Shown here piece by piece: positions 3 through 62,808 of a DNA stretch of 64,000 nucleotides (within the stretch, counting starts at the first letter, position 1; each line of letters opens with the position of its first letter). The notes beneath the pieces are model-generated. The model did not search any database and had not been told where the DNA came from. It saw only the letters and a list, made by a program, of their open reading frames with translations. The position numbers and the translations under genes were made by a program. Location: assembly GCA_040386315.1 (NCBI GenBank), contig JAZKFS010000001.1, forward strand, positions 24,099 to 88,098. The letters are read 5' to 3'. The stretch comes from Bacteroidota bacterium. Its GTDB lineage: Bacteria; Bacteroidota; Ignavibacteria; Kapaibacteriales; DASPKH01.

Positions 3-1322
3 AGCATTACTGCTGCGAAGGAAGCCGGTGCGACACTTCTGATCACGGTTGACTGCGGCATTACGTCCGTAGATGCAGTTGCGCTTGCCAATTCAATGGG
101 CTTTGACTGCATTATCGTTGACCATCATAAACCCGGCGAGGCGCTCCCTGACGCGCTTGCAATCCTTGACCCGATCAAACCCGGCTGTAATTATCCTTTT
201 AAATTCCTCGCAGCGTGCGGCGTTGTTTTTAAACTTTGCCAGGCGCTTGCCATTTCACGCGGTGAACCCGAACGCGCCTTCCTCTACCTCGACTTTGTTG
301 CAATCGCTTCCGCCGCCGATATCGTTCCAATTCTCGACGAAAACCGCATTTTAATGCACTTTGGGCTGGAGCTTTTAAATACTTTTCCGCGCCCGGGTTT
401 TAAAGGTTTGTTTGAATGCGCGGGAATTGAGATCGGTACGGTAAATACAGCAAGTATCGTCTATGGTTTAGCTCCGCGTATCAATGCTGCCGGACGTGTT
501 GGCAGTGCGCGCCGTGCTGTGGAAATGATGATCCAGAGCGATGAATTAGCCGCTTTCAGAATTGCACAGGAATTAGAACAGGAAAACCGCCGCCGCCGTG
601 CTTTTGACGAAGTTGCTTTCGACGATGCTTCACGCCGCGCCGATGAGTTTTTAAAAGATAGCGCCAAACGCTCGCTTGTACTGTATTCTGAGGACTGGCA
701 TGCTGGCGTCATCGGCATTGTGGCATCGCGTCTTGTAGAGCGCTTTAATATGCCGTCGGTGATGCTTACCAAATTTGACGATTACGCAAAAGGTTCAGCT
801 CGCAGCGTTCGCAGTTTTGATATTTTTTCGGCTTTAAAAAACTGTGAATCGCATTTGCAGGAATTCGGCGGACATAAGCACGCAGCCGGCGTTTCGCTTA
901 AAATCGACAATATTGACGCTTTCCGAGAAGCGTTTGATGAGCAGGCGCGCGGCGGAATTTCACAGGAAATGCTCCTGCCGGAAATAGTTATTGACACAGA
1001 ACTCCGCCTGAATGAGCTTTCTCCGGACTTTTTCCAGGTAATAAAAAAATTCGCTCCGTTCGGTCAACAAAATTTTAAACCTGTCTTCCATGCGAAAAAT
1101 GTGACCTCCGCAAACGGCGTTCGCATCGTGGGGAATAATCATTTAAAATTCCGCGCGCTCCAGTCAAACTTTGCTATTGATGCCATTGGCTTTAATCTGG
1201 GCGATAAGATTGAACATTGCACCGATGGAAAAATGTTCTCGCTCGCCTTCACGCTTGAAGAAAATACGTTCAACGGGCAGACTGCTCCACAATTACGGCT
1301 GAGGGATGTTCGTCCTGAGTGA
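3..1322 (+). CDS. recJ: Single-stranded-DNA-specific exonuclease RecJ (C-terminal part; the gene starts upstream of the window)
   Basis: The frame is open from base 3 and reads SITAAKEAGATLLITVDCGITSVDAVALANSMGFDCIIVDHHKPGE. This contains the DHH-family phosphoesterase motif (IIVDHH). It is followed by a DHHA1-like region, and the overall similarity to RecJ is clear. Confidence 0.9.
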   Translation, partial: SITAAKEAGATLLITVDCGITSVDAVALANSMGFDCIIVDHHKPGEALPDALAILDPIKPGCNYPFKFLAACGVVFKLCQALAISRGEPERAFLYLDFVAIASAADIVPILDENRILMHFGLELLNTFPRPGFKGLFECAGIEIGTVNTASIVYGLAPRINAAGRVGSARRAVEMMIQSDELAAFRIAQELEQENRRRRAFDEVAFDDASRRADEFLKDSAKRSLVLYSEDWHAGVIGIVASRLVERFNMPSVMLTKFDDYAKGSARSVRSFDIFSALKNCESHLQEFGGHKHAAGVSLKIDNIDAFREAFDEQARGGISQEMLLPEIVIDTELRLNELSPDFFQVIKKFAPFGQQNFKPVFHAKNVTSANGVRIVGNNHLKFRALQSNFAIDAIGFNLGDKIEHCTDGKMFSLAFTLEENTFNGQTAPQLRLRDVRPE

Positions 1323-5609: not shown

Positions 5610-6158
5610 ATGCGTGTATTGGGAATTGACCCCGGAAGCGTCGTCTGCGGCTACGGCGTCATAGAAAAAATCGGAGCAAAGATCACGCTCGTCGAGTACG
5701 GTGTGATCGAAGCAAAAAAAATACATCCTTCCCTGCAACTTCGCCTCGAAGCGATCTTCACGCGCCTGCAAAAAGTCGTTGAGCGTTCGCTGCCGGATGA
5801 GGCATCGCTGGAATCCCTTTTCTACGCAAAAAACCCGCAGTCGCTCATGAAACTCTCTCATGCGCGTGGCGTTGCAATGCTTGTGCCCACTCTAAAGCAA
5901 ATTCCCGTGACGGAATATTCCGCCCGCGAAGTAAAGCGCGCTGTGACAGGTAATGGAAATTCCAGTAAGGAACAAGTGCAGTTCATGGTGCGAACTCTGC
6001 TTAATATCGAGGAAACCCCGGAATTTTTCGACGCGACCGATGCGCTCGCTATTGCCATCTGTCACGCTTTTAAAGCAGCCAATCCTCAGTCCCGCGCCCG
6101 CTCGTGGAAGGATTTCATTGCGCAGAATCCGCAGCGTGTAGCGGCTGGTGCGAAGTAG
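5610..6158 (+). CDS. ruvC: Crossover junction endodeoxyribonuclease RuvC
   Basis: MRVLGIDPGSVVCGYGVIE with the catalytic Asp in LGIDPG, and a C-terminal ATDALAIAICHA motif. A Shine-Dalgarno-like AGAGGAAA precedes the ATG. Confidence 0.95.
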   Translation: MRVLGIDPGSVVCGYGVIEKIGAKITLVEYGVIEAKKIHPSLQLRLEAIFTRLQKVVERSLPDEASLESLFYAKNPQSLMKLSHARGVAMLVPTLKQIPVTEYSAREVKRAVTGNGNSSKEQVQFMVRTLLNIEETPEFFDATDALAIAICHAFKAANPQSRARSWKDFIAQNPQRVAAGAK

Positions 6159-51815: not shown

Positions 51816-54368
51816 TTAGAGCCGCGGATCCACTGGCTCACTCTCTAATGCAAGTACTCCAAAGACACACTCATGGACTCGCCGTAATGGTTCTTTTAAA
51901 ACAAATCTTTCCATTGCCTCCACACCCAACGCAAATTCCCGCAAAGCAAGCGAGCACTTACCAGAAAGGCCTCGAGAGCGCAACCGTTCGAGATTTTTAG
52001 GGAAATCATATTCAGGCCCATAAATAATCCTCAAATACTCTCTCCCGCGACACTTTACAGCTGGCTGAATTAGGCCTCGTTTTCCTCGTGCTATAAAATC
52101 CAGAGGTTTGACGACAGCTCCCTCGCCTCCTGCATTCGTCATAGATTCCCACCACATGATTGCATCAGCAACGGTTTCTTCTTTTTCAAAATCCACAATT
52201 TTAAAAGCAGTTTTAAAAAAGAATTCCGCGTCTGTTGAGCACAATTGCGCGATAGTCTCCATGTGCCAGAGGTGGTTTTTGTCCGTGTGAACAGTGCCTT
52301 CCGTTGCCAGAATGTGAAATGGCGCAAGTCTTATCCCTTTTAAAGAATCCACAGGCCAGCAGTAATTGCGATAGGATTTTGTGTAATCCTCCACAGCTTC
52401 CTGTCTGTTTTTAAAATGTGCTGAAAGCTCGCCAACGTCCAGCCCGTTTTCCAACGCCGTTTTTAAAACGCTGTTTGCAGCTTCGAGCGAATGTTTTGCG
52501 GCAGCACCGACGGTGGCATACTGCGTTTTTAAAAGCTCCTGCGCTTTGGCTGACCACGGCAGAAGCTCGCAGTCGAGGCAAATCCAGTCTGTTTTTAAAA
52601 CGTCCCACAGCCCGGACGTTTCCATTCCGTCAGTAACCTTTTTTAAAAACTCCTTTTCAAGATTTTTCTCGGTAAAAAACGGCCTTCCAGTCCGAGTATA
52701 GCATACTCCAATTTCATCTCCATTAATACCAAATCGTTTTTTAGCGGAGGCATTATCACGACATACGATCACAACAGCACGAGAACCCATATGTTTTTCC
52801 TCGCATATCACTGAAGGTACTCCCTCTTTCCGATAATAGGCAAGTGCTTCCTCAATATGCTCAAGATAATCCTCTCGCTTACTGGTTTCACTCGGTGACA
52901 TTGTTGGTGGAAGATACATGAGCCATTTGGGATTCACTGCAAAACGACTCATAAGCTCAAGAGCTGCAATAGAATTTTCTTCCCTGATCGTAACTGTATG
53001 ATGCAGTTTCGTGGGAATAATTCGTTTTCCTGAGATGTCGGACAAATCCAGAATGTCGTCTGCCTCAAAGGGAGTCGTTCCTGCTTGCAGCTGGTCATAC
53101 CCAATCGGTTTTGATGGTATGGCATATTGATTTTTAGCCTGAACATGAACAATTTCACGCTCAGGGTACCGAAGCGCGGAAAGCTTTCCGCCGAACACAC
53201 ATCCAGTATCAATATTCATCGTATTGTTGAGCCACACAGCTTCAGGGACTGGAGTATGTCCATAGACTACCATCGACTTTCCACGATATTCCGCTGCCCA
53301 GTTCAACCGTACTGGAAGCCCAAATTCATCCGTTTCTCCTGTCGTTTCGCCAAAAAGAGCAAAATCACGAACCTTCGCTGAGCCTCTTCCCTGCAATTCC
53401 TCTTTTATTCCTGCATGAGCTACAACGAGTTTTTCATTATCGAGGACATAATGACTAATAAGCCCATCAATGAACTTTGCAACCCTCTCAGAAAATTCTT
53501 TTGGCCGTTGCTCAAGCTGCTCCAAAGATTCAGCCAGTCCATGGGCAATCTTGACATTCCGCCCTGTTAGTTTTTTCATGAGCTTAATATCATGGTTACC
53601 TGGCACGCACAAAGCTATGCCAGACGAGACTGAGTTCATAACCAGTTCCAGGACTTCCGGTGTTTTCGGTCCACGATCTACAAGGTCACCCAGGAAGATG
53701 ATTTTCCTGCCGTGTGTCGCTGTAATATCCGGTCCGTTATCAGTATCTATGACCTTGTAATCAAGCTTCGTCAGTAATTCCACCAATTCATCATAGCAGC
53801 CATGAATATCACCGATAATATCAAACGGGCCATGTTCGTGTGAACGATTATTCCATAGAGGTTTTCGGGTGATTTGCACTTTTTCTACGGCTTCCTGTGA
53901 ATCCAGAACATACGTAAAGCGAAAACCCTCCCGCTTTAAAGCTTTAAGTGAACGTCTCAGTTGATGGCGCTGCTGCGGTATAACATGAGAGCCAAAATTC
54001 CTGTCAGAACGCATCGCGTTTCTATCTAGACATACTCTTTCCGGCATATCAAGCACAATTGCTACCAGATGGCAATGATATTGCTGAGCAAGCATAAGCC
54101 ATGATTTTCTGGCTTCCGGCTGCACATTTGTTGCATCAATGACCGTCAGGCGTTTAGCAGAAAGACGCTTTGCAGTTATATACTGCAATACATCAAAAGC
54201 GTCCTTTGTAGCCGCCTGATTATTTTCATCATCCGACACCAGCCCCCGGCAATAGTCCGATGACAGGATTTCAGTCGGTAAGAAATGCTTCCTTGCAAAT
54301 GTTGATTTTCCTGACCCTGAAGCTCCCATAAGCACCACAAGGCAAAATTCCGGTAATTCTATGTTCAT
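51816..54368 (-). CDS. pnkp: Polynucleotide kinase-phosphatase Pnkp (RNA repair): 5'-kinase - metallophosphoesterase - C-terminal adenylyltransferase/ligase-like domain
   Basis: The P-loop is VVLMGASGSGKST. The calcineurin-type phosphatase motifs are GDIHGC, GDLVDRG and GNHD. The C-terminal nucleotidyltransferase motif is I-like (EEKHMGSR, KxxGxR). The protein is 850 aa, and its start overlaps the hen1 stop by 1 nt. Confidence 0.85.
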   Translation of the reverse strand: MNIELPEFCLVVLMGASGSGKSTFARKHFLPTEILSSDYCRGLVSDDENNQAATKDAFDVLQYITAKRLSAKRLTVIDATNVQPEARKSWLMLAQQYHCHLVAIVLDMPERVCLDRNAMRSDRNFGSHVIPQQRHQLRRSLKALKREGFRFTYVLDSQEAVEKVQITRKPLWNNRSHEHGPFDIIGDIHGCYDELVELLTKLDYKVIDTDNGPDITATHGRKIIFLGDLVDRGPKTPEVLELVMNSVSSGIALCVPGNHDIKLMKKLTGRNVKIAHGLAESLEQLEQRPKEFSERVAKFIDGLISHYVLDNEKLVVAHAGIKEELQGRGSAKVRDFALFGETTGETDEFGLPVRLNWAAEYRGKSMVVYGHTPVPEAVWLNNTMNIDTGCVFGGKLSALRYPEREIVHVQAKNQYAIPSKPIGYDQLQAGTTPFEADDILDLSDISGKRIIPTKLHHTVTIREENSIAALELMSRFAVNPKWLMYLPPTMSPSETSKREDYLEHIEEALAYYRKEGVPSVICEEKHMGSRAVVIVCRDNASAKKRFGINGDEIGVCYTRTGRPFFTEKNLEKEFLKKVTDGMETSGLWDVLKTDWICLDCELLPWSAKAQELLKTQYATVGAAAKHSLEAANSVLKTALENGLDVGELSAHFKNRQEAVEDYTKSYRNYCWPVDSLKGIRLAPFHILATEGTVHTDKNHLWHMETIAQLCSTDAEFFFKTAFKIVDFEKEETVADAIMWWESMTNAGGEGAVVKPLDFIARGKRGLIQPAVKCRGREYLRIIYGPEYDFPKNLERLRSRGLSGKCSLALREFALGVEAMERFVLKEPLRRVHECVFGVLALESEPVDPRL

Positions 54369-55765
54369 TAATGTATTCTCCTTTTAAAAACAGCCATTTG
54401 TGTCGGCGAGCCCAAATCCTCATTCACTTCACCAACCGTGAAAAAGTCTGCTTCGTAGCCGTATTTCGCTCCAACCTGATGAGCCCACGCCTGAAACTGC
54501 TGACGCGTCCATTCAAACCGGTGATCCTTATGCCTGAATTTTCCTGCCGGCAACGTTTCAAAAAGTGCATTATACTCTGCATTTGGAGTCGTAACAATCA
54601 CTATTCCAGGTTTTGAAAATCCGAATACATTGCGCTCAAGAGCCGTTAATCTATCTTCATCTAAATGTTCAATTACTTCAATGATTGTCGCAACATCATA
54701 GCCCTCAAGACGCTTGTCACGATAGACAAGAGACGAGTGCAGAAGCTGTATGCGCTGTCGCTGTTTCTCCGGCAGCATATCTAATCTCAAGCGTTTTGTA
54801 GCAATCTCCAGCGTCCGGTAGGAAACGTCCATTCCTACGATCTCAGTAAATTGTTTATCACCTAGAAGCATTTTTAAAAGATTGCCTTCTCCACAGCCAA
54901 GATCCAAGACTCGAGATGCTCCGGTGCCTTTTACTTGTTCAAATACACTCTGCATCCGTATATCATTGAGCCGTAGCTTTTTCTCTACCTGTTCTTCTTC
55001 CTGTGCATGCTCTTCTTCCTTTTCAGCAATCACCGATTCATCAGGTATTAATCTTTGTAGTGCCTCATTTGCCAGAGCTGCCCTATGTTTCAGATAACGT
55101 TTTGTGATGAGTTCCTTTTCAGGATGTGACGCTAGCCAGCCATCTCCTTTGCGGAGGAGTTTTTCCAACTCACCCGTATCTACCCAGTAATGCTTTTCAT
55201 CATCCAGTACTGGGATAAGTACATAAAGATGATTAAGCATATCCTGAACTCTACACACGCCCCAAATTTGAACATCGAAATACCGGCTGTCACCCCACTC
55301 GGGAAATTTCTCATCCAGGGTGAGGCGTTGAGCCTTTACAGTATAACCAAGTGGTTCAAAGAGATTTTTCAGTACAGTCTCGCCACCCCTGCATGGTAGA
55401 ACCGGTATAGCTACAGTAAGTGGAATCGCTGTTTCAGCAAGCTCCTGCCTGTCCTTGCTTCTGCCGCCCATCGCCGTTCCGAAAACCTGCGCCAGCGCCA
55501 CGCTTAAAAACGACGATGCTGCATACGGCCTGTCATTCACATATTGTTGGAGTGCAAATGCCTGCTCGGATTTTTTCCGCACAAGCCCCACCGGGTCAAC
55601 ATCTATGAGTAACGCCGCTGTGCACCTCTTCTCCGTAGCTTCAGGATAGAAAATATGCGCCTGACCAAAGCTCAAATTTGTTGTTTGAACCCGTGCGGGA
55701 TTTTTATGAAGCAAAAAACCCAGGTCTGTTGCGGGCTGATGCGTTGTTGTTATTGTAAGAAGCAT
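54368..55765 (-). CDS. hen1: 3'-terminal RNA ribose 2'-O-methyltransferase Hen1 (bacterial)
   Basis: The protein is 465 aa with the N-terminus MLLTITTTHQPATDLGFLLHKNP. The C-terminal SAM-MTase motif is VLDLGCGEGNLLKML. It is translationally coupled to pnkp. Confidence 0.8.
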   Translation of the reverse strand: MLLTITTTHQPATDLGFLLHKNPARVQTTNLSFGQAHIFYPEATEKRCTAALLIDVDPVGLVRKKSEQAFALQQYVNDRPYAASSFLSVALAQVFGTAMGGRSKDRQELAETAIPLTVAIPVLPCRGGETVLKNLFEPLGYTVKAQRLTLDEKFPEWGDSRYFDVQIWGVCRVQDMLNHLYVLIPVLDDEKHYWVDTGELEKLLRKGDGWLASHPEKELITKRYLKHRAALANEALQRLIPDESVIAEKEEEHAQEEEQVEKKLRLNDIRMQSVFEQVKGTGASRVLDLGCGEGNLLKMLLGDKQFTEIVGMDVSYRTLEIATKRLRLDMLPEKQRQRIQLLHSSLVYRDKRLEGYDVATIIEVIEHLDEDRLTALERNVFGFSKPGIVIVTTPNAEYNALFETLPAGKFRHKDHRFEWTRQQFQAWAHQVGAKYGYEADFFTVGEVNEDLGSPTQMAVFKRRIH

Positions 55766-55809
55766 ATGTGATTCAGCTTTTAAAAAGCGTTTTTATGTTT
55801 TTAAAAAAT

Positions 55810-57186
<1,377 letters not shown>

Positions 57187-57198
57187 TTAAAAGTAATT

Positions 57199-58143
57199 TT
57201 ACAAATCCAGCACTTGAAATTCCGAAATCCTAAATTCCTTTCTTTTTACAAGTTTTGGTTCTTTTAAAAGAAATTCCGGCTTTTCCTTCGTGCTTTTAAA
57301 ACAAAACCTGCGCGGCAAATCTGTATAAATTGAGCGAGGCGGCTTTTTATAACTAATGTCTTTTAAACGATTCCCGCTTTCATATTCATGGTAAAAAATC
57401 CTGCGGATTCCCATTTCCTCGCGGATAAACCACAGCGCAGCGGCCAGCATCGCCTCATCCCAAATCTTCACATGCGGTTTTAAAACGTCTTCTACATACG
57501 TGTGCAGATTTCCCGAATTTACACGATTGCGATGTGTCAGCTGACGCACACGAACACGATTATCGTCGAGTGATTCCACCACTTCCACCGTTGTGCTTCT
57601 ACGCAGTGCCACACGAATCCAGTCATTTTGGATTTCCTCTATCAACGCCTCGCCCGTCGTCAGGTCGAGGTCAATCCGTGCCCACGCCATCGTGCGCCGT
57701 TCACCACCTGCAATCGGATGGCATGAATATTCAAACGGATGGTAATCTTTCGGCTTTATCATCGAAGTATAAGCGCGATTGTGTCCGGCATTGAAATTCA
57801 TTTGCAGAACGATATTCAATCCCGCGCGCGTTTTTTGAGCACCCCATTGTAAGCCGCGTCCCCATTGACCAACTGTCAACGTGTACGATTCAAAGCTCTC
57901 CGGCCACTTCATTTCAAAAAGCTCTGGATAAAGCATTCCGTCCGGTGCCAAAGCAATCAGCTCCCGAACGTCTTTCTTCTCCAGCAAACCTTTAAAAGGC
58001 GTGGCCTTAATATCGCGCACATGTTTGCGCTCTTTCGTCAGATATTGCAAAATCTGGCGCGCGTATTTATCCCGAAAATAATAGAATACCGTCCGCCCCG
58101 GCGTCAGGCACTCGATAATTTCCCTGTATTCTTTTTCTGTCAT
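57199..58143 (-). CDS. Hypothetical protein (314 aa) embedded in the RNA-repair cluster
   Basis: The ORF is uninterrupted and co-oriented with the cluster, 25 bp upstream of the rtcB-like gene. No motif was recognised. Confidence 0.4.
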   Translation of the reverse strand: MTEKEYREIIECLTPGRTVFYYFRDKYARQILQYLTKERKHVRDIKATPFKGLLEKKDVRELIALAPDGMLYPELFEMKWPESFESYTLTVGQWGRGLQWGAQKTRAGLNIVLQMNFNAGHNRAYTSMIKPKDYHPFEYSCHPIAGGERRTMAWARIDLDLTTGEALIEEIQNDWIRVALRRSTTVEVVESLDDNRVRVRQLTHRNRVNSGNLHTYVEDVLKPHVKIWDEAMLAAALWFIREEMGIRRIFYHEYESGNRLKDISYKKPPRSIYTDLPRRFCFKSTKEKPEFLLKEPKLVKRKEFRISEFQVLDL

Positions 58144-58542
58144 AAAAATAGATTATTCTGTCGTTTTTAAAAGTTATTTTTTTCACATTTCCGCAGCTAA
58201 TCCGCGGTTTTAAAAGTTTGTTTGTCCCGCTACCGGGCAGATAATTTTGTCTTAGAATTGTCATTGGATGTTTCCTCCGTTTTGGATTTTTAAAAGAAAA
58301 ACCCGCTCCTGCACGAAGCAAAAGCGGGTTTTAAAAGTTGAAAATTTTAAAAACACTACCTTCGCTTCAGACACAATACACCACGCCCATCCCGCTTTTG
58401 CAGCAGATTTATCGCGTGGCTATATTGTTCAATAAAGGAGCGCATTGTTTTTAAAAGTAATTGCTTATAAAAAAAGTAATAATTCATTGTACCTGCCGAA
58501 AACAGGTTTCCCGCAGGTACAATTTTTAAAAGCCTAGCGAAC

Positions 58543-59976
58543 TCAGTTTTTAAAAGAAACCGAGCTAATTTTCTCAATCATCGAAGCTTTATCTGTTTCC
58601 ATCAGCTTCATGATGTCGAAAATTTTATCTGAAAATCCGGCCGTGCAGAATACTTTGTTTTGAGGCAATTGCAGTGTTCCATAGCCTTGCAGATCAAATG
58701 AATAGACAAACGGGTCAGCGCCAGTACGGCGTTTGTACGCTGTGAATTCGTTTGCCGGAGTGTCATTGCCAATCCAGCCCTGCATGTCTGACAAGATGAT
58801 GATGCGGTCGTATTTTCTTTTCGCCTTTTGAAAGATCGCGTGGAAGTTTGTACCTCCCATCGCAAATTTTATCGAACGCGCAATCGTTATTGTGCTGTCG
58901 CCAATATTCACGTTTTTGTAGGCCGCATCATCGGAAAATGTCATAAAATCAGCATTGTTGGATTTCACCAGGATTGCCGAAAACAGCGAACCGATTTCAG
59001 CCGGTTTTCCCGCCATCGAACCCGAAACATCCAGTACAACAAGCGTTTCGCCATCGAACTTCGGAACGTTATTCAGTGAAATGTCAACCGCCGTATTCAG
59101 CGCTTGCAGCACCTCGCGAACAACTTTCCCGCTGTCCATTTTTAAAACTTCCTCGTACGCCGTTGTAAAGCGGAACGGCAGAACAAGTGATTTTTTAATC
59201 AGGCGCTCGTTCGTCAGCATTTCCAGAGCTTCGCCGATGACGTCAGGTGCCTGCGTAATGATATTGCGCAAGTTTCGCAAAAGTGCAAAGTAGCCGATTT
59301 TTCGCGAGCGAATCAGCTCCGTCCACGCTTCGTTTTTAAAAACGGCTTTTTGCTCGTCGTTTTCAGCTGTTTGTCCGGTTTTTGTCAGCGCGGATTCCCA
59401 TGTACCTGTTGAGCGAAGTTCATCTTTAATCAATGCCGAAATTGCTTCAGCATTTTTCTCAACCGGCACCGGGTGAACCAGATTCACAACATCTACAAGT
59501 TTAAAATCTTTAGATGCCGCACGGTATTTACCCAGCTGGTAGCTATCGAAACGTTCGAATGCTTTTGCAAAACCTTTTTTCATTGAGTTCGGCACTTTAC
59601 CGTTCGTCGCTGTGTGGTATGCCAGGATTTCCATCATGTCATCCGGACGGAATACAACCGCGCTGTAAAAATCCTTCGCCCACACCTGTCCGCCGATGTG
59701 CTTTGCCAGCTCTGAAGCGACCACATGCGAAATCGTACGCATACCAAATTCCGTTCGCGCAAAAATGGCTGCCTTCGCGACGAACTCCTTGTCGCAGAGT
59801 GCGATGAGATTTTTCAATCGCTCTAAGCCGTCATGCTGGCTTCTGTAAAACTGGTCTTTCACGAACGACGTGACCAGCATCGAAACCAGTTCGAGTTCAG
59901 GCGACTGCTTGTACGCATCACCGCCCGCGAAGTTTTTGACTTTTGCCAAAGCTGTTGAAAAATTAAATCGTGCCAT
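58543..59976 (-). CDS. rsr: Ro60-related protein Rsr (TROVE domain + C-terminal vWA domain)
   Basis: It has a TROVE-like N-terminal region and a C-terminal vWA domain with the MIDAS motif LVVLDVSGSM. It sits immediately downstream of the tRNA-like ncRNA array. Two terminator hairpins follow the gene (58488-58525, 58290-58330). Confidence 0.65.
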   Translation of the reverse strand: MARFNFSTALAKVKNFAGGDAYKQSPELELVSMLVTSFVKDQFYRSQHDGLERLKNLIALCDKEFVAKAAIFARTEFGMRTISHVVASELAKHIGGQVWAKDFYSAVVFRPDDMMEILAYHTATNGKVPNSMKKGFAKAFERFDSYQLGKYRAASKDFKLVDVVNLVHPVPVEKNAEAISALIKDELRSTGTWESALTKTGQTAENDEQKAVFKNEAWTELIRSRKIGYFALLRNLRNIITQAPDVIGEALEMLTNERLIKKSLVLPFRFTTAYEEVLKMDSGKVVREVLQALNTAVDISLNNVPKFDGETLVVLDVSGSMAGKPAEIGSLFSAILVKSNNADFMTFSDDAAYKNVNIGDSTITIARSIKFAMGGTNFHAIFQKAKRKYDRIIILSDMQGWIGNDTPANEFTAYKRRTGADPFVYSFDLQGYGTLQLPQNKVFCTAGFSDKIFDIMKLMETDKASMIEKISSVSFKN

Positions 59977-60037
59977 TATGCACCTCCTCTAAAAAATATG
60001 GAAACATGGCTTTTTAAAAAGCCGGGGAATCAAAAAA

Positions 60038-60112
60038 ACGGCAGAGAAAACTGCGGGAGTTCTACTGGGCGATTTAGCAAATCGAAGTAACTCAAAGCCG
60101 CATCACTACTGC
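60038..60112 (-). ncRNA. Y-RNA-like repeat unit A (short form, lacks a tRNA-like module)
   Basis: It shares the unit ends (GGCAGAGAAAA ... CACTACTGC) and the internal CGAAGTAACTC motif with units C-F. Confidence 0.35.
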
Positions 60113-60138
60113 TTTTAAAAAGACAATTTTAAAAATAA

Positions 60139-60222
60139 GAGGCAGAGAAAATTCGCGTGGAATTTAGGGCGAATTAAAAGTTCGCTGCTTTAAAGCGATG
60201 TATTCCGCGTGTCGCTACTGCC
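60139..60222 (-). ncRNA. Y-RNA-like repeat unit B (short form)
   Basis: It has the same terminal motifs (GAGGCAGAGAAA ... CGCTACTGCC) with complementary ends. Confidence 0.35.
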
Positions 60223-60235
60223 TTTTTAAAATAAA

Positions 60236-60362
60236 TGACGGAGAAAATGGGGTAAGGCTGTGCTTTACCAATTTAGCTACCAACGGAGTTTTAAAACCCC
60301 GATGGACTGGACTCGAACCAGCAATGACTTACGTCGAAGTAACTCACCTTTCACTACCGTCA
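60236..60362 (-). ncRNA. Y-RNA-like (YrlA-type, tRNA-mimic) unit C
   Basis: The minus strand reads GACGGTAG..GAGTTACTTCG..CTGGTTCGAGTCCAG-TCCATCGG..CCGTTGG-TA-GCTAAATTGGTAAAGC..CTCCGTCA. That is T-arm, then 3' acceptor strand, then a short linker, then 5' acceptor strand plus D-arm. The acceptor strands are complementary (6/7), and the unit ends pair (GACGG/CCGTC). Confidence 0.45.
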
Positions 60363-60392
60363 AACTTTTAAAAATGAAAGAACAAAAAATAA

Positions 60393-60532
60393 AGAGGCAG
60401 AGAAAGTTTATGTAGGACTTTTTCGTTGCTCTACCAACTGAGCTATATTCAGAATTTTAAAATCTGAACAGCCGGACTCGAACCGGCGACCCACGGCACC
60501 CTAAGCGAAGTAACCCACATATCGCTACTGCC
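60393..60532 (-). ncRNA. Y-RNA-like (tRNA-mimic) unit D
   Basis: The T-arm is GCCGGTTCGAGTCCGGC. The 3' acceptor strand TGTTCAG pairs with the downstream CTGAATA, which is followed by TA-GCTCAGTTGGTAGAGC (D-arm). Confidence 0.45.
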
Positions 60533-60547
60533 TTTAAAAAAACAAAA

Positions 60548-60692
60548 TGACGGAGAAAATCTGAGTGAGTAAGCTGCTCTACCAACTGAGCTACATCCCC
60601 ATTTTTAAAAACTTAAATCAGAGGAGATGGCGGGACTCGAACCCGCGACAGGCCGCGTGATAAGCGAAGTAACCCACTCGTCGCTACCGTCA
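60548..60692 (-). ncRNA. Y-RNA-like (tRNA-mimic) unit E
   Basis: The T-arm is GCGGGTTCGAGTCCCGC. The 3' acceptor strand CATCTCC pairs (with one G.U) with the downstream GGGGATG, which is followed by TA-GCTCAGTTGGTAGAGC. The unit ends are TGACGG/CCGTCA. Confidence 0.45.
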
Positions 60693-60703
60693 AAAAAATA
60701 CGT

Positions 60704-60833
60704 GATGGAGAAAGTTTACAGGAGTTGTTAGGCGAAACGCTCTAACCTTTGAGCTATATTCCGTTAGCTGGAACAGCCGGACTTGAACCGGCAACGTTTT
60801 CGTACGAAGTAACTCGCCGTATCACTACCATCA
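60704..60833 (-). ncRNA. Y-RNA-like (tRNA-mimic) unit F
   Basis: The T-arm is GCCGGTTCAAGTCCGGC. The 3' acceptor strand TGTTCC pairs with GGAATA, which is followed by TA-GCTCAAAGGTTAGAGC. The unit ends are GTGATGG/CCATCAC. Confidence 0.45.
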
Positions 60834-61252
60834 CATTTTCCAAAGAACATTTTTAAAAGCAAAAAACCCACCTTCGCGAATCTTGCAAAGGTGGGTTTTC
60901 AAAAAGATGAAACCGCTCTATATGTATTGCTACACTACCTCTGCTTTAGACAAAACCCTTCCTGACTGCCAAGCATATGCTTGCGGTCTATCACGGGATT
61001 ATATGTTGCTAAAGTGAGGCGCATTGTTTTTAAAAGTAATTATCGTCGTGTTTGTAAAATTGAGTTGCAAACCTACAAAGGTTTTTTACAAAGTCAAATT
61101 AATTTTTTGTCATAATGCAAATAATTATAAGACTTCACATCGGTAAGTTTTACATTGTGATGCTAAAGAAGTATTTAAATTTGATATTTCTCTGGTCTAA
61201 TACAGGTCTACTGGTTCAAGAAATCCCTTAAATTTACCAGATTTCACCACAT

Positions 61253-61913: not shown

Positions 61914-62094
61914 ATGTTAATTTTGTGCTGGTTTTTAAAAGAAAATTTTAAAAACTATTATTTTAAAACAATTACCTTCCCATTTGTTTTTATATCTCGT
62001 AGCCGTACATTTTTATATGAAACCCTAAAAAAAGTAATTCCACGTGTTTTTAAAACATGGAATTACTCATTTTTCTAAAACAATTTACAACTTT

Positions 62095-62808
62095 TTAAAA
62101 ATTCATCGGAACATCAATCACCAAAACTTCAGAATCTTTTAAAAACTTCATTTCAACATTTTTAAAATCCTCAATTCCAATCGCGTCACGTTCTTTTAAA
62201 ACATTTTCGTCAATTTCCGCTTCACCTTTTAAAAGAAAAATAAACGCGCCATTTCCTTCCTTTTTAAAAGAATATTCCGCCGTTTTTCCTTCATCAAAAT
62301 TCCCCATCGAAAACCACGTATCCTGGTTTATCCAAACTGCATCGCTCTCTTTTTGGGGCGAAACAACCGTTTTAAAACTATTTTTAAAACCATCTTTTTC
62401 AAAGCTTTTCTGCTCGTAGCGCGGCTGAATATCCTTTTCTTTCGGGTAAATCCAGATTTGCAGAAAATGCACTTCCTCTTCAGGCGAATAATTATATTCC
62501 GAATGCGTGATACCGCTTCCAGCTGACATGATCTGCACATCGCCCGTTTTAATTTCCTTCGCCACTCCGGTTGAATCCTTGTGCGCCAGCGTTCCTTTAA
62601 GCGGAATGGAAACAATTTCCATATTCTCGTGCGGATGCGCGCCAAAACCCTTTCCCGGTGCAACAATATCGTCATTCAGCACGCGCATCAGGCCAAAATT
62701 CATCCTGTTCCTATCCTGATAACCCGCAAAGCTAAACGTGTGGCGCGATTTCAGCCAGCCGTGATCTGCATTTCCCCGTGATTCACTTGTAAAAATTGTC
62801 GTTTTCAT
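62095..62808 (-). CDS. Pirin-family (bicupin) protein
   Basis: GFGAHPHENMEIVSIPLKG and SAGSGITHSEYN match the pirin HPHxG and cupin His motifs. Confidence 0.85.
   Translation of the reverse strand: MKTTIFTSESRGNADHGWLKSRHTFSFAGYQDRNRMNFGLMRVLNDDIVAPGKGFGAHPHENMEIVSIPLKGTLAHKDSTGVAKEIKTGDVQIMSAGSGITHSEYNYSPEEEVHFLQIWIYPKEKDIQPRYEQKSFEKDGFKNSFKTVVSPQKESDAVWINQDTWFSMGNFDEGKTAEYSFKKEGNGAFIFLLKGEAEIDENVLKERDAIGIEDFKNVEMKFLKDSEVLVIDVPMNF

Follow-up and report, generated by a model that had tools for sequence, protein, structure and literature searches.

A tandem array of six probable Y RNAs upstream of the Ro60 orthologue gene rsr in a Bacteroidota bacterium

The 64-kb stretch of contig JAZKFS010000001.1 from a Bacteroidota bacterium, referred to as a whole as the window, carries on its minus strand a gene for an orthologue of the Ro60 protein (rsr) and, directly upstream of it, six head-to-tail sequence units at 60833-60039, numbered U1 to U6 from 5' to 3' on that strand. 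An original prediction, made from the sequence, had described six minus-strand units of 75-145 nt and read them as probable multiple copies of a YrlA-like Y RNA encoded beside rsr. The units are indeed present, at 76-145 nt, and the reading is supported by matches to the Rfam YrlA model, by covariation in five helices, by synteny in 66 related loci and by an Rsr with TROVE and vWA domains. Most of the array would accordingly belong to a known class of small bacterial RNA, non-coding and with a tRNA-like domain, here in a divergent and multiplied form.

Each unit is delimited by a pair of motifs, N5-GTAG(C/T)GA at its 5' end and TTTCTC-N5 at its 3' end. The two N5 segments of a unit are complementary and covary (GACGG/CCGTC, GGCAG/CTGCC, GATGG/CCATC), and such complementary termini, which had been noted before, occur in all six units with differing sequence and conserved pairing. 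The spacers between units are T-rich and only 10-32 nt long. In U1-U4 the T arm is followed by a hairpin made from both acceptor-like strands, by the dinucleotide TA and then by the D arm, and the acceptor-like pairs quoted in the original prediction (CATCTCC/GGGGATG, TGTTCAG/CTGAATA, TGTTCC/GGAATA and CCATCGG/CCGTTGG) are all found. Its quoted sequences are correct apart from small variants in U1 (GGTTCAAGTCC and TAGCTCAAAGGTTAGAGC), U4 (TAGCTAAATTGGTAAAGC) and U5; the internal motif, GGGTTACTTCG in both U2 and U3, has a degenerate form in U5 (GGAATACATCG). The second stem of U1-U4 takes the place of the tRNA anticodon stem and bears a permuted core of variable region, T arm, acceptor-like hairpin, UA and D arm, while U5 and U6 keep only the stem module and a GUUACUUCG junction motif. 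The order of T arm before D arm had been remarked upon; it is present, but circular permutation of a tRNA with a closed acceptor stem is the defining layout published for YrlA (bioRxiv 10.1101/312249; PMC4201824), and the permuted order is therefore a hallmark of a known family.

Table 1 Coordinates of the array units, neighbouring genes and elements in the window, and of comparable features in related loci (L numbers)
Feature	Coordinates	Strand	Description
U1	60703-60833	-	131 nt, YrlA type: terminal stem, stem 2, T arm, 6-bp closed acceptor-like hairpin, D arm
U2	60548-60692	-	145 nt, YrlA type; 7-bp acceptor-like stem CAUCUCC/GGGGAUG, 23-nt loop
U3	60395-60533	-	139 nt, YrlA type
U4	60236-60362	-	127 nt, YrlA type
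U5	60140-60223	-	84 nt, short form: stem module without T, acceptor and D arms
U6	60039-60114	-	76 nt, short form, weakest member of the array
rsr (Ro60 orthologue)	58543-59976	-	477 aa, TROVE and vWA
Co-oriented genes 3' of rsr	51816-58143	-	Pfam; same order in L001 only
314-aa protein	57199-58143	-	Between rsr and the RtcB-family gene; 93% identical in L001, also on L090
RtcB-family ligase	55810-57174	-	Pfam
Hen1	54368-55765	-	Pfam
Pnkp	51816-54368	-	Pfam
e1	60862-61098, including promoter match (element itself 61041-60862)	-	Long hairpin, intrinsic terminator
e2 (e1 paralogue)	58296-58462	-	Between rsr and the next gene; long hairpin, intrinsic terminator 58332-58298
Unpermuted Y-like units	L004:211-345; L007:4797-4938, 5752-5893; L005:609-750, 841-984, 1120-1262		See text
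tRNA arrays upstream of rsr	L005:1784-4241; L007:4820-5962; L009:3297-5748; L081:2233-3730		See text

The Rfam YrlA model (RF02553, curated gathering score 69 bits), run as a local E-value search of 1.2 kb, matches U2 with 46.3 bits (E 7e-9), U3 with 39.4 bits (E 6.8e-7), U4 with 33.3 bits (E 3.8e-5) and U1 with 28.1 bits (E 1.3e-3), and all four matches span the first to the last model position with the helices in correct register. A permuted-tmRNA model also matches the T arm and acceptor of U2 (60592-60646). Within 60039-60833 neither ARAGORN nor the Rfam tRNA model calls a tRNA, and a canonical cloverleaf with an anticodon arm is absent from the array. Both kinds of search had been suggested in the original prediction. 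All six units are predicted to fold with paired ends (those of U5 included), an internal loop and a second stem, and thus share the long YrlA stem formed by the 5' and 3' ends. In the minimum-energy folds of U1-U4, the second stem closes a junction with the T arm and the acceptor-like hairpin, joined in U2 and U3 by the D arm; the fold z-scores of U1 and U4 are -2.7 and -3.7. The full YrlA module of T arm, closed acceptor-like stem-loop, UA and D arm is present in U1-U4 and absent from U5-U6. Positions that make tertiary interactions in tRNA are also kept, namely the UA linker, the GG of the D loop, the UUCRA of the T loop and the pyrimidine preceding the T stem, and the alignment has invariant columns at TAGCTCA..GGTAGAGC and GGTTCRAnTCC; the positions kept correspond to those described for YrlA (bioRxiv 10.1101/312249), in which conserved nucleotides of the D stem, D loop and T loop are needed for the tertiary fold of a tRNA. 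Further traits by which the YrlA class is defined are binding by Rsr, reliance on Rsr for accumulation, and modification by TruB and DusA.

With Rsr as bait, nine genome and 80 metagenome loci were gathered, which with the window make 90 sources; the labelled relatives are mostly Bacteroidota metagenome-assembled genomes (MAGs). A plain MAFFT alignment of the 12 long units of the window and loci L001, L002 and L003 (alignment A2), with its structure taken from RNAalifold, contains a terminal stem, stem 2, T arm, acceptor-like stem and D arm, which are the five YrlA helices. Compensatory changes occur at 21 of its 30 pairs, and 90.8% of cells are paired as opposed to 35-45% with the 3' partners slid; the observed pairing and covariation values were reached by no shuffle. 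A covariance model built from A2 (R1) gives 148 hits in the 90 sources, all upstream of rsr on the rsr strand and, in the window, within the array only. After one tRNA-dimer artefact (L081:3523-3613) was dropped, 147 candidate units remained, located in 67 of the 90 sources (the window and 66 loci). In the window, R1 scores U1 at 98.8 bits, U5 at 42.0 bits and U6 at 21.4 bits (E 1.4e-4 in 3 kb). The larger alignment A3, comprising 125 distinct R1 hits from the 67 sources, has compensatory changes at 29 of 30 pairs, 94.3% of cells paired versus 39-48% in shifted controls, and a covariation score of 0.445 versus 0.05-0.07 in slid controls; helices 1 and 2 covary at all 13 of their pairs in these 125 sequences. 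The helix-preserving covariation that had been claimed for the units is thus borne out in all five helices, in A2 as in A3.

A leave-out model (R2) was built on 28 other rsr loci, from which 39 long units were taken; the window, L001 and L010 were omitted. Across the 64 kb it recovers exactly the six units of the window, U3 with 117.6, U2 with 106.3, U1 with 91.1 and U4 with 77.9 bits, followed by U5 (36.7 bits, E 1e-6) and U6 (23.0 bits, E 2.4e-3), and nothing else at E<0.1. Since R2 holds no sequence from the window or its close relatives and finds these six units only, the array lies beyond chance.

The closest relative, L001 (DASPKH010000453.1), encodes an Rsr that is 91% identical and carries the same six-unit array within the same operon. 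Its label is that of a Patescibacteria-group MAG, in contrast to the Bacteroidota labels that prevail among the other labelled relatives, and may be due to mis-binning. Comparison of the window's units with their L001 orthologues reveals double substitutions that preserve pairing in the T and acceptor stems: T stems show G-C to A-U and G-C to U-A changes, the acceptor stem of U2 has a change of C-G to G-C, and five of eight acceptor pairs in U3 are altered on both strands yet still paired. As judged from these alignments, the compensatory substitutions show the helices of the array units to be under selection. Within the window the four long units are mutually 62-68% identical. For U3 and U2, closer counterparts exist in loci with an Rsr of only 66-68% identity; because the likeness to these distant counterparts exceeds that within the window, the paralogues appear to be old and individually maintained.

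These comparisons bear on two explanations of the array as genomic debris. Decayed or dimeric tRNA genes form a known class of false positives in which juxtaposed T and D arms mimic YrlA; the T- and D-arm sequences of the array are tRNA-like, and the hit excluded from L081 is exactly such a dimer. However, the array has no tRNA calls and no anticodon arms, a covarying terminal stem and stem 2 of its own surround each T/D pair, and the substitutions relative to L001 indicate selection on the helices, which leaves this origin highly improbable. Attachment-site or mobile-element debris might come to mind as tRNA-like sequence is often an integrase target, but no further copies of the units occur in the 64 kb, no integrase domain is found in the Pfam-scanned neighbouring open reading frames (ORFs), and the paralogues retain a conserved structure at 62-68% identity instead of being identical copies in decay. 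We regard this last origin as hardly credible.

The number of units per source ranges widely among the 67 sources: one in 30, two in 11, three in 16, four in five, five in two and six in three, with the window scored as five at the survey threshold and as six with U6 counted. These counts indicate that arrays are common in the clade and that the window stands at the top of the range. The family had been described as unusually expanded; six is the maximum, but three to five units are common, and more than one YrlA per locus has been reported before (PMC4201824). Arrays of six, with four long and two short units, belong to the window and to L001 and L010, its close relatives; in the remaining source with six hits, L005, several hits contain or overlap tRNAs called by ARAGORN.

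The short class is represented in related loci by 70 distinct sequences with the same stem, the same GUAG(C/U)GA and, where a small apical loop has its base, the same GUUACUUC motif. U5 and U6 have the features expected of short YrlB-like Y RNAs, as they lie beside YrlA units and rsr and have paired ends and the motif but no complete tRNA-like domain; the term YrlB-like refers here to design. Intermediate forms with a T arm but without the acceptor-like hairpin or D arm (L032:3792-3883, L035:3683-3783 and L087:3620-3714) link the full YrlA type to the minimal short one. A form with only the T arm has been reported for the YrlB of Mycobacterium smegmatis (PMC4201824).

A different arrangement is seen in the distant loci L004, L005 and L007, where units with the terminal stem and a UUACUUCG motif carry an unpermuted part consisting of UA, D arm, anticodon-like arm and T arm. 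In five of the six stretches ARAGORN places tRNAs (His, Asn, Val, Phe), although the acceptor pairing of L007:4797-4938, the one inspected by eye, is poor. The unpermuted order resembles the description of Deinococcus radiodurans Yrn1. In several distant relatives, moreover, rsr is immediately preceded on its own strand by an array of 7-17 tRNA genes whose anticodons vary, in some cases interleaved with Y-like units.

The protein encoded by rsr has the TROVE domain, a ring of HEAT repeats, and the C-terminal vWA domain by which the ring-shaped RNA-binding protein Ro60/Rsr is recognised. Pfam TROVE scores 66 bits (E 4e-18) and vWA_Ro60 23 bits, below its cut-off; residues 13-463 match the solved phage Ro60, a TROVE protein (PDB 9l5y/9kop, E 1e-24), and there is a further match to Xenopus laevis Ro60 (1yvp, E 5e-5). 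In the window and the 66 related loci, the Y units lie upstream of rsr and co-oriented with it, within the proximity expected of YrlA (~4 kb). The co-oriented genes downstream of rsr include an RtcB-family ligase, Hen1 and Pnkp. The first gene beyond rsr, ahead of the RtcB-family gene, encodes a 314-aa protein, which had no match in Pfam, NCBIfam, PADLOC and PDB sequence searches and may be an uncharacterised part of an RNA-repair locus.

The presence of RtcB-family, Hen1 and Pnkp genes invites the explanation that the units are tRNA-like RNAs acting independently of Rsr, as decoys or substrates of these enzymes or of anticodon nucleases, with the adjacency of rsr being mere operon packaging. 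A decoy role has indeed been suggested for YrlA's tRNA-like domain (PMC7790460). Against this, the linkage of Rsr with RtcB, Hen1 and Pnkp is confined to the window and L001, whereas that of Y units with rsr is kept in 66 loci with differing neighbours, and the short units, which have no tRNA-like part, still hold the common stem motifs. Independence from Rsr thus seems quite improbable.

No terminator-like site was found within the array or between it and rsr, whose start codon lies 62 nt beyond the end of U6, and the spacers are too short for individual promoters. Together with the presumed Rsr-binding motif in the units, this would also suit an array whose main action is in cis, the rsr mRNA having it as a structured 5' leader, for example for autoregulation through Rsr sites or for stabilisation, and not as a source of separate trans-acting RNAs; the two roles could coexist. 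However, characterised systems release such units as stable RNAs (PMC4201824), a hairpin and T run separate array and rsr in several related loci (L002 and L003, by eye), and paralogues conserved at 66-68% Rsr identity fit individual functional RNAs better. We therefore consider a mainly cis-acting array unlikely.

The array-plus-rsr module is bracketed by two paralogous elements, e1 and e2, each with a long hairpin, in which a 29-codon ORF is conserved and ..AGGTAGTG forms a 3' box, and then a strong terminator. An identical 23-nt box (TTACTTTTAAAAACAATGCGC..) is found in both. The terminator of e1 (60900-60862) lies just upstream of U1, and the fold z-score of e2 is -6.6. The two elements are ~89-95% identical to their L001 counterparts (e1 94.6%), where the ORFs are kept; substitutions show no third-position bias (4 of 11, by hand count from the alignments), which together with the long-hairpin folds disfavours 29-codon leader peptides. 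Candidate antiterminator pairings can be drawn by eye. These elements could be leaders or attenuators, small-protein genes or separate small RNAs.

Two further observations concern the window at large. The palindromic octamer TTTTAAAA occurs 177 times in the 64 kb, where 10.0 +/- 3.1 copies are expected, more often than any other octamer by a wide margin. It is located in spacers, RNA loops and ORFs (read as Phe-Lys or Leu-Lys), for example at 62093-62389 within a Pirin gene and at 60012-60858 in the array. Of the related loci, only L001 and L010, which are the closest, reach a similar density (~4 per kb); the median of the others is 0.14 per kb. It looks like a lineage-specific, highly iterated palindrome, to which the HIP1 element of cyanobacteria is comparable; its presence in acceptor loops and spacers as an array-specific processing signal was considered and rejected, given its over-representation across the whole window. 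A segment of ~21.5 kb (24300-45800) has a G+C content of 0.35-0.39 as opposed to 0.43-0.47 and only six TTTTAAAA sites. It encodes a pfa-type polyunsaturated fatty acid/polyketide synthase cluster (ketosynthase-acyltransferase-acyl carrier protein, ketosynthase-FabA dehydratase, ketoreductase and enoyl reductase) with an adjacent phosphopantetheinyl transferase, and was probably acquired horizontally.

Among the closest known systems is the rsr-yrlBA-rtcBA operon of Salmonella Typhimurium (PMC7790460). In both, the RNAs lie beside rsr on the same strand, and their ends form the (in the window, presumed) Ro-binding stem; the order of T arm, closed acceptor-like hairpin, UA and D arm is that of Salmonella YrlA, with nearly the same D stem (GCUC/GAGC) and T loop. 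A shorter partner RNA without the full tRNA-like domain and a linked RtcB-family ligase are also held in common. However, Salmonella has two RNAs downstream of rsr while the window has six upstream, and its 5' motif GNCGAA contrasts with GUAG(C/U)GA in units that score below the Rfam gathering score. The window units also differ in their long variable regions (15-23 nt) and in the linkage of Pnkp and Hen1 in place of RtcA and RtcR. The upstream position is shared with M. smegmatis, in which YrlA and YrlB are processed from one precursor (PMC4201824), although there are only two RNAs in that system.

Several small RNAs upstream of rsr are likewise found in D. radiodurans (Yrn1 and Yrn2), where PNPase is tethered to Rsr by the Y RNA (PMC4201824). 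In Yrn1 the D/T orientation is opposite to that in the units of the window and resembles that of the distant units of L004, L005 and L007. Vertebrate Y1, Y3, Y4 and Y5 provide an analogy of another kind, being two to four paralogous Ro60-binding RNAs with a common stem and divergent effector loops; unlike U1-U4, they are without a tRNA-like module. The Rfam metazoan Y_RNA model had no match listed at E<=10 in a local search of the array. The 5' part of U4 (60362-60336, GACGGUAGUGAAAGGUGAGUUACUUCG) holds GGUAGUGA and GAGUUA, which are found in human Y1 RNA at its 5' end as well; this may be a coincidence or, at most, a lead.

Taken together, we put at roughly four in five the probability that the array specifies six Y RNAs that partner Rsr, four of the YrlA type (U1-U4) and two minimal YrlB-like ones (U5-U6), with a mechanism modelled on the characterised systems. 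What is observed is the sequence, structure, covariation, family resemblance and synteny of the array. Several points weigh on the other side. The YrlA scores of U1-U4 all fall below the 69-bit gathering score, their E-values being significant only in the local search, and Rfam at gathering score over the whole window returned nothing in the array and two ordinary tRNAs elsewhere. The evidence for YrlA therefore consists of sub-threshold matches and our own covariance models, and U1-U4 are called YrlA-type by architecture and not as members of the curated Rfam family. The published 5'-strand motif of YrlA and proposed Rsr contact, GNCGAAN0-1G (Chen et al. 2014), is literally absent; the invariant GUAG(C/U)GA occupies the same position and has the YGA core in common with it. 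U6 is weak at 21-23 bits, its L001 orthologue scoring 36.9 bits with R1. Alignment A3 was fitted to the model and leans towards the structure, while A2, which was not fitted, has only 12 related sequences. The only full promoter consensus in the region, a Bacteroidetes-type match at 61098-61068, precedes the terminator-ended e1. Finally, we infer the expression, processing, Rsr binding and function of the units.

For an array of Y RNAs, the following mechanism can be proposed. Short spacers and the lack of a terminator in the array or before rsr suggest that the units would be co-transcribed and then excised from a precursor. U2 and U3, with their 7-bp acceptor-like stems, could be RNase P substrates like the YrlA of M. 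smegmatis. Each RNA would bind Rsr through its stem, and the conserved 5' strand GUAG[C/U]GA, which follows the covarying 6-bp helix, is the likely Rsr-binding site. The tRNA-like end would then present an effector or adaptor surface, such as a tether of Rsr to PNPase or another factor; alternatively, it might serve as a decoy for tRNA-directed nucleases. As RtcB, Hen1 and Pnkp genes share the locus, the Ro ribonucleoproteins (RNPs) probably have a part in the surveillance or repair of RNA under stress.

A bolder extension, of which we are doubtful, is that the four YrlA-type and two minimal RNAs form a specialised panel for the surveillance of tRNA damage, akin to vertebrate Y1-Y5. The conservation of paralogues across loci with Rsr 66-68% identical permits such a panel and does not demonstrate it. 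If it were true, each tRNA-like module, having an acceptor-like stem and variable arm of its own, would imitate or rival a separate class of tRNA or bring a partner of its own to Rsr (PNPase, RtcB or Pnkp/Hen1), and the cell would hold a modular set of Ro RNPs.

The class of RNA described here is already known; what distinguishes the array is its divergent sequence, the large copy number, the expanded and conserved sets of paralogues and the link to Pnkp and Hen1, by which the array is tied in this lineage to the RNA-repair genes Pnkp, Hen1 and RtcB. The roles of bacterial Y RNAs are poorly understood, and so is the function of their tRNA-like domain (PMC4201824; PMC7790460). Mostly Bacteroidota-labelled rsr loci bear up to six Y RNAs, all of them missed by the curated Rfam model at its threshold. 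A clade whose conserved paralogues are of three forms, with the full tRNA-like part, a T arm alone or just the stem, offers a comparative system for separating the Rsr-binding from the effector-binding parts of these RNAs.

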